Part shown: positions 11,414-45,202 of the stretch, piece by piece
Layout: every line of letters starts with the position of its first letter
Position numbering within the stretch: the stretch's first letter is position 1
Source of the DNA: Omnitrophica WOR_2 bacterium RBG_13_41_10
Lineage (GTDB): Bacteria > Omnitrophota > Gorgyraeia > Gygaellales > Profunditerraquicolaceae
DNA: 49,952 nt
Assembly: GCA_001805465.1 (NCBI GenBank)
Contig: MHGH01000005.1
Location: forward strand, 1 to 49,952
Direction of reading: 5' to 3'
Notes under the pieces: model-generated
Databases searched by the model: none
What the model was told of the DNA's origin: nothing
The model's input: only the letters and a program-made list of their open reading frames with translations
Program-made: the position numbers and the translations under genes

Positions 11414-12514
11414 TTGGAACAGGAAATATTCCACAGAGCCAAAAGATACTCCGCAACAAAATATTTCTTAGCACTTTTTGACATAGCGTATCTATTATTG
11501 TTGCTTTTTCTTTTTTTAAAGACAGGCCTATCAAAAATTTTAGTAAGTAATATCTCTAAATTTTTAGCTTATCCTTTACTTATTCCTACCTATATAATAA
11601 TCGCTTCCTTAGGATATTATATTTTGGATTTTCCTTTCAACTTTTATCGCTCATTCTTGTTAGAGCACAAATTTTCTTTGAGCACGCAGAAGGTTACGGA
11701 TTGGCTGAAAGACCAACTCAAACAATTTGGCCTATCTTATGTTATTTCCTTTATCTTGGTTGCGGCATTTTATTTTATCTTGGGGAATCTCCCCAAGATC
11801 TGGTGGCTGATAGTTTCGCTATTCTGGATATTCTTTAGCCTGATCCTAGCAAGGCTTACCCCTGTAATAATTATCCCCCTATTTTTTAAATACAAAAAAC
11901 TCTCTGATGAAACACTAAGGATGAGAATTTTAAATCTAGCCCAGAAAATGCGGGTAAAAATCTTGGATTGTTTCGAAATAGATTTCAGCAAAAAAACCCT
12001 AAAGGCCAATGCCGCTTTTGTGGGGATAGGTAAGACCAGGCGGGTGATTTTAGCCGATACCTTAAAAGATAAATATACCCATGATGAGATTGAAGTAATC
12101 CTGGCGCATGAATTTGCGCATTATAAGTTAAAGCATTTACTTAAGTTGATTTTAATTAATTCTTTAATAACAGTACTATCTTTTTATTTAATTTTTAAGA
12201 CCAGCGATTATACATTACGCTTTTTTGGTTTTGTTTCGCTGTCACAGATTGCTGCTCTGCCGGTTATCTTGATTTATTTTACGTTCTTTGGTATTATTAC
12301 CCAGCCGATAGAAGCTTACCTTAGCCGCTGTTTAGAAAGAAATGCCGATAAAATGGCATTAGAGGCAACCGGTTTAAAAGATGCTTTTGTTTCCATGATG
12401 GAGAAATTGGCTGCGCAGAATCTGGCCGATAGATCACCGCATCCCGTTATCAAGTTTTTCTTCTTTGACCATCCGCCTATCGACGAACGCATCGCCTTCG
12501 CAAAATCAACGTAA
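11414..12514 (+). CDS. M48 family zinc metallopeptidase (Ste24/HtpX-like, multi-pass membrane)
   Basis: HEFAHY zinc motif, multiple TM segments, C-terminal FFFDHPPIDERI. The predicted start is TTG. Confidence 0.82.
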   Translation: MEQEIFHRAKRYSATKYFLALFDIAYLLLLLFLFLKTGLSKILVSNISKFLAYPLLIPTYIIIASLGYYILDFPFNFYRSFLLEHKFSLSTQKVTDWLKDQLKQFGLSYVISFILVAAFYFILGNLPKIWWLIVSLFWIFFSLILARLTPVIIIPLFFKYKKLSDETLRMRILNLAQKMRVKILDCFEIDFSKKTLKANAAFVGIGKTRRVILADTLKDKYTHDEIEVILAHEFAHYKLKHLLKLILINSLITVLSFYLIFKTSDYTLRFFGFVSLSQIAALPVILIYFTFFGIITQPIEAYLSRCLERNADKMALEATGLKDAFVSMMEKLAAQNLADRSPHPVIKFFFFDHPPIDERIAFAKST

Positions 12515-12523
12515 TCTCTATAT

Positions 12524-12709
12524 TTAGCAGGTCCTGGCTTGGTTTGTTTCTCGCGGGGACGCTCTCCCCGCCCCTGCGAGGCGGAGATTCGCTCCCCTGC
12601 GGTGTCTCGCTCTCACCGACTATCTTTTAGCAGGTGAACCATGCCCGCTCGTCATCCTCGGAGGCCCCGTTCGAAATCAAACCAAGCCACCCGCTAAGAC
12701 CAGTTTTTT
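12524..12709 (+). ncRNA. Candidate structured ncRNA of unknown class (GC-rich, ~175 nt). Strand is tentative
   Basis: A perfect 12-bp closing helix (12535-12546 pairs with 12678-12689) extends outward with irregularities to 12524/12697. The interior is far more GC-rich than the flanks and holds the hairpin GCGGGGA-CGCTC-TCCCCGC (12553-12571). A T6 run lies at 12704-12709. A possible promoter is TTCGCA (12497), 16 nt, TATATT (12519). Confidence 0.35.
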
Positions 12710-12830
12710 ATTGACAGGGAATTATGCAGCAGTAAAATAATATTTATTGTAGAGGATTTATTCTAGATAATGTAGTGGCTGTATAATAGAGTGGTGCTTT
12801 GGAATATCTCATAATGGAGGAGGCGAGCAT

Positions 12831-13247
12831 ATGTTAACAGAGAAAGAAAATAAAATTATAAGAAACATTGTGAATGGAAGAATGCGTAGGATTAGAATTT
12901 ATTCTTCTGTATTTATGGCCACGGTATTTTTAATATTATTGGTATTTTCGTTAAATGTAAAAAATAAGACATCGGGCATTTTAGAGAGAACATTCGGACG
13001 ATCAGAATCTTCTTTAATGAAAATAGAAACTAAAACTAAATTGGAAGAGCGCTTAAAATCTATGTTATCAGAATCCGATAACGAATTAAAGAAGATGACT
13101 TATGCTGTTATAGTTGCAAGCATTACTTGGCGACTCATTTGGTTTGGAACTATATTTTTTATGGCAATCTTAGAACTTTGGAATTTAAATATCTTTGAGA
13201 GAATAATAAATAAATTACAGGAAGAAAGAGAAATGCGACAGGTTTAA
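12831..13247 (+). CDS. Hypothetical membrane protein
   Basis: 138-aa ORF with SD GGAGGAGG, two hydrophobic segments, and no recognisable family. Confidence 0.5.
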   Translation: MLTEKENKIIRNIVNGRMRRIRIYSSVFMATVFLILLVFSLNVKNKTSGILERTFGRSESSLMKIETKTKLEERLKSMLSESDNELKKMTYAVIVASITWRLIWFGTIFFMAILELWNLNIFERIINKLQEEREMRQV

Positions 13248-13336
13248 ATTTACTTAAGCTTAAATTTATTCCTTTTTGCCAAATTGTTAACAGATTTTAA
13301 ATTGACCATTTTCACTTAAAGTGATATTTTATAAGT

Positions 13337-13684
13337 ATGCAAGAACGCCGAAGGTTTGTCAGAATTCCGGAGAATTTGCAGATATCCTACGAAATTATGC
13401 CGAGCGTAAAAAGCGGAGCTTTTATTACCAAAAATATCAGCCAGGGCGGGATAAGATTTTTTGTCCACGATCTCATTCCTAAAAATAGTCTTTTAAAAAT
13501 AAAACTCACCATTAAAAATATACCTTTCTCTTTTGATGCCATGGTGAAACTTATCTGGATTAGAGAAGAGCCTCAGAGTGAAAGATATGAAATCGGTGTA
13601 GAATTTGTAAACCTGCCTAAAAAATCCGCAAAAACCCTTATTGCTTATATAAAAGATATCTTAGAAGTAAGTCATCGTGCATAA
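13337..13684 (+). CDS. PilZ domain protein (c-di-GMP receptor candidate)
   Basis: RRRFVRIP (RxxxR) and NISQGGIRF (D/NxSxxG) motifs at the spacing expected for PilZ. 115 aa. Confidence 0.75.
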   Translation: MQERRRFVRIPENLQISYEIMPSVKSGAFITKNISQGGIRFFVHDLIPKNSLLKIKLTIKNIPFSFDAMVKLIWIREEPQSERYEIGVEFVNLPKKSAKTLIAYIKDILEVSHRA

Positions 13685-13686
13685 GT

Positions 13687-13737
13687 TTCGACCACCCTTC
13701 CATCGACGAACGCATCGCCTTCGCAAAATCTTCGTAA
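13687..13737 (+). pseudogene. Orphan copy of the last 16 codons plus stop of the M48 peptidase gene
   Basis: It reads FDHPSIDERIAFAKSS*, against FDHPPIDERIAFAKST* at 12465-12514. The 29-nt core is identical (13702-13730 equals 12479-12507). No upstream ORF is joined to it. Confidence 0.8.
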
Positions 13738-13753
13738 TTTAATTATTTTCTGG

Positions 13754-13823
13754 GTAAATGGGGTCAGAATTATTTTTTCAGTAAATGGAGTCATAGGAAA
13801 AAAATAATTCTGACCCCATTTAC
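13754..13823. terminator. Long perfect inverted repeat (25-bp stem, 20-nt loop). Probable bidirectional terminator and a member of the GGGGTCAGAATTATTT repeat family
   Basis: 13754-13778 pairs perfectly with 13799-13823. T/A runs sit at the inner ends of the stem arms. It lies at the convergent junction between the plus-strand genes and lpxB, and the right arm overlaps the lpxB stop codon. Confidence 0.7.
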
Positions 13824-33446: not shown

Positions 33447-35111
33447 ATGACTGGTGCACAGATATTAATTGAGTGTTTAAAACGCGAAGGGGTGAAAGTG
33501 ATGTTTGGCTATCCCGGCGGACAGGTTCTGCCTATTTTTGATGCGCTTTACGATGCGGATATCAAATTCATCCTGGCGCGTCATGAGCAGGGGGCAGCCC
33601 ATGCCGCAGACGGCTATGCCCGGGCTACCGGAAAAGTGGGAGTTTGTATTGCTACTTCTGGGCCGGGTGCTACCAATTTAACTACCGGTATTGCCAACGC
33701 CTATATGGATTCTATTCCCATGGTGGCGATTACCGGTCAGGTAAAGACTTTTCTTATCGGTAATGATGCCTTTCAGGAAGCAGATGTAACCGGCGTCACC
33801 CGGCCGATTACCAAACATAATTTTTTAGTCAAAGATGTCAAGGATCTGGCGCGGATTATCCGGGAAGCTTTTTATATTGCCTCAACCGGCAGGCCCGGCC
33901 CGGTCTTAATTGATATTCCTTCGGATGTACAGATGCAGGATACAGAATTTATTTGGCCTGAAGAAGTAAAAATTCGCGGATACAATCCTACTTATTTTGG
34001 CCATCCTGGGCAAATTAAAAAAGCCGCTAAATTAATCAAGCAGGCCAAAAGGCCTATTCTTTATACCGGCGGAGGAATTATTACTTCAGGGGCAAGCCCA
34101 GAGTTAAAAGATTTAGCGGAAAGAATTCACATTCCCGTAACTAATACCCTGATGGGGTTAGGTGGATTTCCTGGAACGCATGAACTTTTCTTAGGCATGC
34201 TTGGTATGCATGGCACTGCCTATGCCAACCACGCTATTATGGGGTCAGATTTAATTATTGCAGTGGGTGCGCGTTTTGATGACCGGGTTACCGGCAGATT
34301 AGATGCCTTTGCGCCGGGTGCCAAGATTATCCATATTGATATTGATCCAGCATCGATAAGCAAAAATGTAAAAGTGGATGTACCGATAGTGGGTGATGCC
34401 AAGAATATTTTAGGACAATTATTAGAGGAGATTAAAAAAGTCCCTGATACTACGGAGTGGTTAAAAACGATAGATAGCTGGAAGAAGAAATATCCTTTAA
34501 AATACAAAGAGGAAGGCAAGATTAAACCTCAATATGTTATCGAACAGATTTATCAAGCCACTAAAGGAGAAGCCATTATCACTACTGAAGTTGGGCAAAA
34601 CCAGATGTGGGCCTGTCAGTGGTATAAATATACCTCGCCCCATACTTTTATTTCTTCGGGAGGGCTCGGTACTATGGGTTTTGGTTTTCCGGCAGCAATG
34701 GGCGCTAAGCTGGGTTGCCCGGAAAAAATTGTCTTCGATATCGCCGGTGATGGTTCGATTCAGATGAATATTCAGGAATTAGCCACCTGCGTCTGTAATA
34801 AAATAAATGTCAAGGTGGCGATATTAAACAACGAATATTTAGGGATGGTCAGGCAATGGCAGGAACTATTCTATAAGAAACGCTATTCTTACACCACATT
34901 ATACAATCCGGATTTTGTGAAATTAGCCGAAAGTTTCGGCGCAGTGGGTATCCGAGTGACCAAAAAAGAAGAGGTGCGCCCGGCCATTGACAAGGCGCTG
35001 GCAATAGATAACACAGTGTTTATTGATTTTCATATTGAACCGGAAGAAAATGTCTATCCTATGGTGCCGGCGGGGGAGGCGATAAATAAAATGTTAGGGG
35101 GCTTAGCTTAA
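33447..35111 (+). CDS. ilvB: Acetolactate synthase (acetohydroxyacid synthase) large subunit
   Basis: [14 protein letters not shown] and the ThDP motif [16 protein letters not shown]...[12 protein letters not shown]. 554 aa. Confidence 0.94.
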
Positions 35112-36666: not shown

Positions 36667-38172
36667 ATGGATAAGATAATAATTTTTGATACTACGCTAC
36701 GCGACGGAGAGCAGGCTCCGGGAGCAAGCCTTAACCCCAAAGAGAAATTAGAAATCGCCCATGCGCTTTCGGATATGGGGGTGGATATTATTGAGGCAGG
36801 GTTCCCTATTGCCAGTAAGGGTGAGCTTTTGTCAGTGCAGCAAATTGCCAAAGCCATTAAAGGCCCGGTAATCTGCGGATTAGCCCGCGCCATCAAAGCA
36901 GATATTGATGCTGCGCATGAGGCAGTAAAACACGCCAAGCATCCGCGTATCCATGTATTTTTGGCGACTTCCAAGATTCATATGCAGTATAAATTGAAAA
37001 AAGCCGAAGATGAGATCTTGCGCCTGGCAGTAGAATTTACCAAATATGCCAAGCGTTTTTTCCCTGACATAGAATTTTCTCCGGAAGATGCTTCACGCAC
37101 AGAACGAGAATTTCTTTTTCAAGTGGTAGAAGCAGTAATTGATGCCGGAGCCACTACCGTGAACATACCGGATACTGTCGGATATACTGAGCCTGCGGAG
37201 TACGGTTGTTTAATCAAGGCAATCAAAGAAAATGTCCCTAATATCGATAAGGCTATTATTTCCGTGCATTGCCATAATGATCTGGGCCTGGCAGTGGCTA
37301 ATTCTCTGGAAGCGATAAAGAATGGGGCTCGTCAGGTTGAATGCACCATCAATGGAATCGGCGAACGCGCAGGGAATGCCTCTATGGAAGAAATAGTGAT
37401 GAGTATTCGTACGCGTAGAGATATCTTTAGTGATGTCGATACCCAGATTAAGACGAACTCTATCTATAAGGTTTCGCGCCTGGTAAGTAAATTAACCGGT
37501 TTTGTAGTCGCTCCCAATAAGGCCATTGTGGGCGGTAATGCCTTTCGTCATGAATCAGGCATACATCAGGATGGTGTGCTCAAAGAGCGCTCTACCTACG
37601 AAATCATTAAACCTGAAGATGTAGGGTTTACCGGAACGGGAATTGTGCTAGGGAAGCATTCCGGCCGCCATGCCTTAGCCGAGCGGTTAAAAGACTTAGG
37701 TTTTAATCTCACAACAGAACAACTGAATACTGTCAGCGAGCGTTTCAAAGCCCTGGCTGATAAAAAGAAGACTATTTTTGACGATGATTTAATTTCCATA
37801 GTAGAGGATGAAATTAAACAGATTAAGCCAGTCTGGAAACTGGAAGGTTTTGTTACTAATTCCGGGACAAAGATTACTCCTACGGCAGAGGTAGAGTTAA
37901 AATATAAAAATAAGTCCCTTTCTGCAAAATCCAGCGGCGACGGCCCGGTAGATGCCTGTTTTAAGGCTATTGATAAGATTACCGGTATCAAAGGTGAGCT
38001 GCAGGATTACCGTATTGAAGCCGTTACTAAAGGTAAAGATGCCCTCGGTGAGGTGAGCCTGAAATTAAAAGCCAAAGGCAAGATAGTGACAGCGCGCGCT
38101 TCCAGCACCGATATTATCGAGTCATCGGTCAGGGCTTACATTAATGCCCTCAACAAAATAGAAAGCCTCTAA
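36667..38172 (+). CDS. leuA: 2-isopropylmalate synthase
   Basis: IFDTTLRDGEQ, HCHNDLGLAVANSL, and a C-terminal LeuA dimer/regulatory domain. The ATG at 36667 gives the canonical N-terminus. The track's GTG at 36619 lies inside the repeat hairpin. Confidence 0.9.
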   Translation: MDKIIIFDTTLRDGEQAPGASLNPKEKLEIAHALSDMGVDIIEAGFPIASKGELLSVQQIAKAIKGPVICGLARAIKADIDAAHEAVKHAKHPRIHVFLATSKIHMQYKLKKAEDEILRLAVEFTKYAKRFFPDIEFSPEDASRTEREFLFQVVEAVIDAGATTVNIPDTVGYTEPAEYGCLIKAIKENVPNIDKAIISVHCHNDLGLAVANSLEAIKNGARQVECTINGIGERAGNASMEEIVMSIRTRRDIFSDVDTQIKTNSIYKVSRLVSKLTGFVVAPNKAIVGGNAFRHESGIHQDGVLKERSTYEIIKPEDVGFTGTGIVLGKHSGRHALAERLKDLGFNLTTEQLNTVSERFKALADKKKTIFDDDLISIVEDEIKQIKPVWKLEGFVTNSGTKITPTAEVELKYKNKSLSAKSSGDGPVDACFKAIDKITGIKGELQDYRIEAVTKGKDALGEVSLKLKAKGKIVTARASSTDIIESSVRAYINALNKIESL

Positions 38173-41643: not shown

Positions 41644-41810
41644 TTTTATGGTTTCGCTTTTCGCGTGCTGAAATTTTTTGCCGTGTACTTCGGTTTACGG
41701 CTCTCTCTCGGAGAGACCTTACACGGGAGCACAATCCTCCGTTCGCCGTAATCCCTCATACACTTTTGCCAAAAAATTTCTAATGCACGCTCTAAGCGAA
41801 ACGCATAAAA
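41644..41810. repeat. 167-nt element bounded by ~37-nt terminal inverted repeats, with a GC-rich structured core (MITE-like or ncRNA)
   Basis: 41644-41680 pairs with 41770-41810, about 33 bp with one bulge and one 3x3 loop. The core contains a C(UUCG)G-capped hairpin (41681-41700) and CUCUCU/GAGAGA (41704-41718). Confidence 0.6.
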
Positions 41811-43571: not shown

Positions 43572-43584
43572 GATAGAGAATAAT

Positions 43585-43633
43585 GGGGTCAGAATTATTT
43601 TCTGCCCTAGTAAATAATTCCGACCCCGTTTTT
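43585..43633 (+). terminator. Hairpin-terminator repeat, copy 2 of the GGGGTCAGAATTATTT family
   Basis: GGGGTCAGAATTATTT (43585-43600) pairs with AAATAATTCCGACCCC (43612-43627), one A.C mismatch, followed by GTTTTT. The conserved 16-mer CTAAACAGCGATAAAA lies at 43644-43659. Confidence 0.75.
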
Positions 43634-45140: not shown

Positions 45141-45153
45141 ATAAGGTAATAAA

Positions 45154-45202
45154 GGGGTCAGATTTATTTTCTGCCCTAATAAATAATTCCGACCCCGTTT
45201 TT
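45154..45202 (+). terminator. Hairpin-terminator repeat, copy 3 of the GGGGTCAGAATTATTT family
   Basis: GGGGTCAGATTTATTT (45154-45169) pairs with AAATAATTCCGACCCC (45181-45196), followed by GTTTTT. The same loop core CTGCCCTA occurs as in copy 2. The 16-mer CTAAACAGCGATAAAA lies at 45223-45238. Confidence 0.75.

Follow-up and report, generated by a model that had tools for sequence, protein, structure and literature searches.

The window analyzed in this study is a stretch of 49,952 nucleotides (nt) of DNA from Omnitrophica WOR_2 bacterium RBG_13_41_10 (GenBank assembly GCA_001805465.1, contig MHGH01000005.1), and the subject is a GC-rich element at positions 12524-12697 that lies just behind a gene for an M48-type peptidase. 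Almost certainly, this element belongs to a multi-copy family of dispersed, structured sequences and is no 6S-type RNA gene. The family is best read as a set of non-autonomous, self-propagating, highly folded non-coding repeats, which lodge in short spacers just after stop codons. To the more specific proposal that these repeats are mobile DNA, with a mechanism that proceeds via a folded single strand, we assign a probability of roughly 0.5. The family is apparently undescribed: no model in Rfam 15 matches it, and the literature searched yielded no published description.

Fold and covariation of the family

The limits of the element in the window were defined by copy-to-copy alignment, in which conservation runs from 12524 (TTAGCAGG...) to 12697 (...CCCGCTAA), i.e., over 174 nt. 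A covariance model, R1, matches the window at 12522-12699 with 178.5 bits. The G+C content of the element is about 0.60, compared with about 0.41 genome-wide. Its + strand has a folding energy of -75 kcal/mol, versus -55.9 +/- 4.0 kcal/mol for dinucleotide shuffles (z -4.75). The - strand is more stable than the + strand (-86.7 kcal/mol, z -4.88), and none of 200 shuffles equaled the real energy on either strand. The parts of the window copy are as follows.

12524-12697, + strand: whole element, delimited by conservation among genomic copies, about 60% G+C
12524-12531, + strand: 5' strand of helix H1 (TTAGCAGG), partner 12690-12697 (CCCGCTAA), with one A.C mismatch in the window copy
12535-12550, + strand: 5' strand of helix H2, partner 12673-12689, with conserved bulges on the 5' strand (TCC ahead of it)
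12553-12558, + strand: 5' strand of helix H3 (GCGGGG), partner CCCCGT at 12665-12670
12561-12592, + strand: hairpin A, closing pairs G12561-C12592 and C12562-G12591, stem 12566-12572/12580-12586, loop CCTGCGA at 12573-12579
12576-12578, + strand: GCG of loop A, candidate for a tertiary or pseudoknot contact, proposed partner TGC at 12642-12644
12594-12606, + strand: 5' strand of helix H5, partner 12651-12664, identified by covariation and mutual information (MI)
12607-12612, + strand: junction strand TCGCTC, with conservation of 90% or more between phyla
12613-12637, + strand: hairpin B, TCACC at 12613-12617 pairing with GGTGA at 12633-12637
12638-12650, + strand: junction strand ACCATGCCCGCTC, more strongly conserved than any other part of the family

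Covariation backs six helices and one loop-to-junction tertiary pair. The test set comprised 103 distinct Omnitrophota copies, and the controls were alignments in which the 3' partners had been slid by 1-3 columns, plus shuffles. Standard pairs fill 94.7% of the cells in the real alignment versus 33-50% in the slid controls, double-sided changes occur in 43 of the 46 pairs, and the observed values were reached by 0 of 500 shuffles. In a cross-phylum set, 91.9% of cells are paired and all 39 modeled pairs show double changes.

From the outside inward, the architecture begins with H1 (UUAGCGGG/CCCGCUAA), all 8 pairs of which show double changes across copies, and continues with the long H2, whose 5' strand carries the conserved bulges and whose 13 pairs, including a perfect 12-bp helix (12535-12546/12678-12689), all covary. 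Next come H3 (CGCGGGG/CCCCGCG), in which CGGGG/CCCCG is exchanged for CAGCA/UGCUG among other compensatory replacements, and a three-way junction bearing hairpin A (loop CCCCAGCGAGG), whose stem exists in four different compensating versions among the copies of the window's own genome. H5 is built from the two linkers; its cognate duplexes have an energy of -9.2 kcal/mol compared with -4.7 kcal/mol for non-cognate ones, and MI identifies the pairs 71-139, 72-138, 81-128 and 82-127. It is weak in the window copy, where its ends (12594-12595/12663-12664 and 12601-12606/12651-12656) pair. The apical junction, UCGCUC-(hairpin B)-AACCNUGCCCGCUC, is the best conserved part of the family, and hairpin B itself varies in length from 15 to 70 nt among copies. 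An apparent covariation of base identities in the own-genome copies, AGC-X-GGUGAACC-X-UG, was dropped once hairpin B proved variable.

No exception breaks the covariation between loop A and the 3' junction strand, which form G:C in 91 copies and C:G in 11 (distributed over at least three subfamilies), and beside this tertiary pair stand an invariant C:G and a G.U found in 98 of 102 copies. The element has two modules, an outer irregular rod and an inner core (H3, hairpin A, H5 and UCGCUC-(hairpin B)-AACCNUGCCCGCUC) that is kept across phyla. In Omnitrophota, the outer rod consists of the conserved arms TTAGCGGGTCCTGTCTTGG ... CCAAGCCACCCGCTAA, which are terminal inverted repeats. The fold is under strong selection.

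Much of the original prediction, which had been made from the letters of the window, agrees with these results. It had placed a structured, rod-like element of no assigned class at this position and had called it strikingly GC-rich, and both descriptions hold (folding z about -4.8 on both strands; G+C as above). Its 12-bp helix is exact, the suggested pairing of CGGGG with CCCCG (12554-12558/12665-12669) is a true conserved helix, and that of CUCC with GGAG (approximately 12593-12596 with 12660-12663) likewise corresponds to a conserved helix, whose consensus-mapped pairs are 12594-12595/12663-12664. The shuffles and the compensatory changes in homologs, both of which it had named as checks, came out in its favor. 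A further pairing, of GCGAG with CUCGU, found no support, and a competing hairpin, GCGGGGA-CGCTC-TCCCCGC, is a peculiarity of one subfamily that is not kept in other copies.

Copies in Omnitrophota and in other phyla

The window belongs to a 1.3-Mb Omnitrophota metagenome-assembled genome (MAG) of 22 contigs, in which copies were sought by BLAST and nhmmer. This genome holds about 13 copies, 73-92% identical and some of them truncated. They occupy tight spacers between ordinary genes (e.g., with 25 nt to the gene before the copy and 16 nt to the gene after it) and lie inside operons in either orientation. Inverted pairs are frequent (e.g., C15:59067 with C15:59271), and one pair is arranged tail to tail. 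With respect to GC skew, and thus replication, 8 copies agree and 5 oppose, so there is no strand bias. The strand bias of genes in this genome is extreme and tracks GC skew, with about 90% or more of coding on the G-rich strand and a skew of about +/-0.1 (20-kb neighborhoods, 13 sites). The copy on contig C10 lost its 5' arm to a run of N at approximately 37948-38080.

When a covariance model built from ten own-genome copies was applied to 201 sampled Omnitrophota genomes, the element was found in 90 of them, mostly in several copies each, with many matches at contig ends. Orientation relative to flanking genes is random in this phylum (18 same, 12 opposite). At one locus (L159, G119:C3:3500-10000), two direct copies bracket a 1.8-kb segment of small accessory genes, which resemble genes for a RelE/ParE-type toxin and an ORF6N-domain protein (translations judged by eye); a HigB/HigA-like pair, also recognized by eye, follows the second copy, and another short repeat (translated ...MHASPKPESLYGWWL) recurs there.

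Other phyla were searched with the pattern CTCGCTC-N15-45-AACCNTGCCCGCTC in 596 Gb. This pattern retrieved contigs of Saccharibacteria and other CPR/Patescibacteria, Aminicenantes, WOR-3 and Margulisiibacteriota, as well as Krumholzibacteriales, Desulfaltia, one Thermotogae MAG and Clostridia-labeled MAGs, and the covariance model confirmed full-length matches in the retrieved non-Omnitrophota contigs. By our calculation, about 34 matches are expected by chance in 596 Gb; therefore, a few matches in GC-rich genomes are probably noise, and the model-confirmed ones are not. All 15 tested genomes of other phyla contain the element, in 1 to at least 67 copies each; the highest numbers, at least 67, 56 and 42, come from three MAGs of 3 Mb, and a Saccharibacteria MAG of 0.8 Mb has 16. 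Outside Omnitrophota the outer rod sequences differ and the core is nearly unchanged, and 33 of 45 copies share the strand of the upstream gene, often starting between -5 and +25 nt from its stop codon. Eight cross-phylum loci had no match in Rfam.

The arm motif of the Omnitrophota type (CGGGTCCTGTC...GCCACCCG) was also seen in Eubacteriales- and Aminicenantes-labeled MAGs (L283:1388-1520; left flank of L343:138-302), where it occurs with other interiors or beside core-bearing copies; the arm module may thus be widespread in its own right. Among 2.9 million viral contigs, the core pattern was found once. Carriage by phages was considered and rejected: 28 exact 16-mer matches in viral contigs are attributable to chance, and none is a match to the covariance model.

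Mobile DNA or RNA

At orthologous sites, copies have been gained and lost and have also changed orientation. The leuB-asd spacer of one genus is about 15 nt long and empty in three species (G125, G159 and G095) and filled in two others, G127 and G189, by elements of about 90% identity that have opposite orientations relative to the genes. The flanks keep their orientation and the element is inverted (L160:2220-2394 in G127 versus L161:5162-5332 in G189), which reflects either inversion in place across the long inverted arms or independent insertions at the same spot. A clean insertion junction could not be reconstructed at leuB-asd, where filled and empty sites are too diverged. End-to-end lengths of 118 loci fall into two classes, about 70 and about 170-216 nt, and mini versions of 45-78 nt retain only the arms (H1 and H2). 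At C3:39225-39464 there is a chimera in which the arms of the studied element surround a different core. The latter belongs to a third structured repeat family (TTTTATGGTTTCGCTT...AAGCGAAACGCATAAAA), which stands alone at 41644-41810 of the window and occurs also at C21:76760-76960; its nesting in TTAGCGGG arms in the chimera shows that modules mix between repeat families.

If the family is mobile DNA, the element would spread as DNA via a folded single-stranded intermediate, and the enzyme acting on this intermediate would be supplied in trans. Only copies that keep the fold would then propagate, so that the fold itself would be what is selected. Hints of a constraint at the level of DNA, or on two strands, come from the lack of a G.U excess, the random orientation in Omnitrophota, the apparent in-place inversion and the better folding of the - strand. 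The counts (GU+UG versus AC+CA) are 40 versus 59 in one comparison and 29 versus 44 in another; within the inner helices they are 9 and 12, respectively, of 802. More tentatively, the conserved core, tied together by the loop-junction tertiary pair, could represent a new class of active nucleic acid shared by bacterial phyla, although we are inclined to doubt it: either a small ribozyme or RNA-processing module traveling with its own rod, or a folded single-stranded DNA substrate of an unrecognized recombination system. The second version would explain how a non-coding element of 170 nt reaches dozens of copies without a known transposase.

Several results weigh against propagation as mobile DNA. 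Direct repeats of at least 5 nt are no commoner around the element than in permuted flanks, and the only possible target duplication is the TA inside a palindromic TTA..TAA. Copy-specific inverted flanks, which are striking in a few copies of genome G231, do not exceed the control overall. No open reading frame (ORF) lies between the ends of any copy, and the ends never stand 0.5-6 kb apart around an ORF. Three features fit an RNA better than the ends of a transposon: the conservation of the core sequence between phyla, the near-invariant G.U (98/102) of the tertiary interaction, and the location, outside Omnitrophota, of 33 of 45 copies directly behind the upstream stop codon and on its strand. 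Enzyme profiles, compared between 27 element-rich and 20 element-free Omnitrophota genomes, revealed no partner. IS630-type DDE_3 transposases occur in 2 element-rich and 3 element-free genomes, TnpB (PF07282) in 2 and 1 (IscB received no separate search), reverse transcriptase (PF00078) in 7 and 3, and the IS110 DEDD recombinase (PF01548) in 5 and 2; none of the four is present in the own genome. Transposases of the Y1/RAYT type are found in 22/27 element-rich and 16/20 element-free genomes and are thus equally common with or without the element; 6 of the 15 carriers from other phyla lack them, and no copy of the element was seen near any of 25 sampled Y1_Tnp loci (+/-1.5 kb) or any of the four Y1_Tnp genes of the own genome. 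The own genome contains no multi-copy protein genes, and no neighbor gene recurs, whether in genomes with a single copy of the element, at 45 loci from other phyla or at 20 loci (25 copies) of the 67-copy genome G231.

Some of the own Y1_Tnp genes are associated with repeats of other kinds. The RAYT-type Y1 transposase gene at C16:30036-30728 has, on either side, a palindrome built on ACGGGGTCAGAATTATTTT, which makes a classical REP-RAYT pair, and members of this palindrome family lie in the window at 13754-13823, 34236-34261, 43579-43633 and 45148-45202; the same repeat truncates two copies of the studied element, at C12:24872 and C3:16800. The RAYT genes at C10:14980-15462 and C14:36023-36700 each have a flanking REP family of their own (GTAGGGACAC...GTGTCCC, in at least 11 copies, and GTAGGGGACGGTTCTATTTTT), and the flanks of the fourth gene, C1:58082-58909, are not repeated.

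One rival reading regards the element as a cis-acting RNA module at the 3' end of the upstream transcript, which would serve in 3'-end protection or processing or would be a new self-cleaving or protein-binding RNA; the + strand core would be the active part, with copying being secondary. We consider this possible, although it is not the reading we favor. It would accommodate several observations, namely the strand preference outside Omnitrophota, the position of the window copy 9 nt past the M48 stop codon, the conservation of single-stranded junction sequences across phyla, the perfect covariation of the loop-junction tertiary pair together with its near-invariant G.U, and the failure to find a transposase, a target-site duplication or a coding version. 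It is, however, difficult to reconcile with G.U pairs that are as rare as A.C mismatches, which is unusual for RNA selected on one strand, or with orientations that are random in Omnitrophota (18 versus 12; 8 versus 5 in the own genome). In addition, the - strand folds better, the element apparently inverts in place between species, and the conserved unpaired bases of the + strand are nearly all pyrimidines. A second rival reading is that the element is a REPIN/BIME-like repeat moved, as folded single-stranded DNA, by one of the RAYT (Y1 HUH) transposases of its own genome. Y1_Tnp is the only common transposase-like family (38 of 47 genomes overall), with 4 genes in the own genome, where other REP-RAYT pairs exist. 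Moreover, G.U is not preferred, and the ends of the element start with TTAG, resembling the GTAG of REPs. Nevertheless, we find this version unlikely: of the four own RAYT genes, three have other REP families at their flanks and none has the element there, no element lies within 1.5 kb of the 25 sampled RAYT genes, RAYT is lacking in 5/27 element-rich Omnitrophota and 6/15 carriers from other phyla and is as frequent in element-free genomes, and orientation is unbiased relative to replication.

The M48 locus and comparison with known systems

The genes and sites next to the window copy are as follows.

11414-12514, + strand: Peptidase_M48 gene, upstream, with its stop codon 9 nt before the element
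12705-12738, + strand: T6 run (12705-12710) followed by a strong promoter-like sequence, TTGACA-16-TAAAAT (12711-12738, 11/12), flanking the element and outside the repeat
12831-13684, + strand: islet cargo, i.e., a membrane ORF of 138 amino acids (12831-13247) and a PilZ-domain ORF (13337-13684)
13687-13748, + strand: orphan copy of the last 16 M48 codons, 82% identical to 12464-12525, at the right edge of the islet

In five relatives, the M48 and lpxB genes converge and abut, without islet or element. The gap between them in the window is about 1.3 kb and contains the element, the T6 run with the promoter-like site, the membrane and PilZ ORFs, the orphan M48 end and a REP-type palindrome (13754-13823). 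Another promoter-like pair, TTCGCA-16-TATATT (9/12), lies at 12497-12524. Neither the T6 run nor either promoter-like site was seen at other copies.

The original prediction had likened the element to 6S RNA, and a trans-acting small RNA gene of this type could be imagined to extend from TTCGCA-16-TATATT to the T6 run. Such a gene would have a suitable length (about 175 nt), a closing rod, and a promoter-like pair and T run at hand, and these two signals, which the prediction had pointed out, do exist at the window copy. They are missing at the other copies, however, and searches of Rfam 15 with cmscan, covering the whole window at the gathering threshold and 12450-12800 at E<=10, gave no match to 6S (RF00013) or any other model. 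With about 13 dispersed copies in the own genome, some of them 16-25 nt from flanking genes inside operons and in either orientation, and with a center made of two hairpins on a three-way junction where 6S has a central bubble, a 6S gene is extremely improbable. The prediction had also suggested that an RNA borne by an element, or else a recombination site, forms the left edge of the inserted islet, which was correct in direction but not in tying the element to the islet, since other copies lie between housekeeping genes. It is true that the element stands at the left edge of a 1.2-kb islet absent from five relatives and that a duplicated M48 3' end brackets this islet. Yet an att-like site, or an integral part of the islet, is very unlikely to be the right description: the other twelve copies of the own genome, like hundreds in other genomes, have housekeeping genes on both sides and no islet, and the duplicated segment (12464-12525/13687-13748) is outside the element. 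The duplicated M48 end outside the element, together with other copies that lack islets, indicates that the element is a neighbor of the islet and not its recombination site. Nothing observed in this analysis links the family to cassettes. The islet itself may have come by homology-anchored acquisition of donor DNA already carrying the M48 3' end and the element, or by an old site-specific integration. The window copy probably arrived together with the islet or before it, and would now form part of the 3' untranslated region of the M48 mRNA, with no 6S-like role.

Among known repeats, ERIC/IRU sequences (127 bp) share much with the family: an imperfect long palindrome, dozens of copies in transcribed operon spacers in either orientation, conservation far beyond one species, internal indel variants, and a non-coding nature without a known transposase. 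The studied family is nevertheless unrelated to them in sequence, occurs in many phyla, has a branched core (two hairpins, a three-way junction and a tertiary pair) with invariant single-stranded motifs, and offered no demonstrable TA duplication. REP/BIME/REPIN-RAYT systems are likewise dispersed, GC-rich, intergenic hairpin repeats, often in inverted pairs and long-lived in lineages, but the studied element is five times longer, branched, never beside a RAYT gene and also present in Y1-free genomes. MITEs resemble it in size (<300 nt), terminal inverted repeats (in the Omnitrophota form), copy number, presence/absence polymorphism and deletion derivatives. They differ in that the element shows no target-site duplication and no autonomous parent, an IS630-type transposase is not in the own genome, and it is the interior, not the ends, that is conserved across phyla, other phyla having other arms.

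The attC sites of integrons follow a similar logic of a folded single strand (no G.U preference) with structure kept over stem sequence, and they too sit right after or overlapping the preceding stop codon; in contrast, RYYYAAC/GTTRRRY boxes are absent by eye from the studied element, which forms no cassette arrays, lies between housekeeping genes and has a strongly conserved core sequence. HEARO and omega RNAs (IscB, TnpB) are also multi-copy, structured, non-coding and 150-250 nt long, with members in many phyla and some that stand alone. The element differs from them in having no Rfam match, in pairing its two ends together so that no free guide is left, and in its genomic company, TnpB being found in 2/27 element-rich genomes and not in the own genome. 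An IS110 bridge RNA or an RNA carried by a retroelement (retron, group II, DGR) would be expected to co-occur with a DEDD recombinase or a reverse transcriptase, respectively, and the profiles given above show no such association. With 6S RNA (SsrS) it has in common a length of about 180 nt and a closing rod, but none of the single-copy gene, the central bubble resembling an open promoter and the Rfam match that characterize 6S.

The window copy is ordinary within its family, and it is the family that deserves study. It presents an unusual combination of properties, i.e., a fold of 150-200 nt with six covarying helices, invariant junctions, dozens of copies per genome and a presence in many phyla. 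The element breaks MAG assemblies, inflates intergenic spacers and, viewed locus by locus, can pass for a regulatory RNA. If the family is mobile DNA, it has spread without any of the usual enzymes and must have another route of mobilization; as RNA, it would be among the most widespread unclassified structured RNAs of uncultured bacteria.

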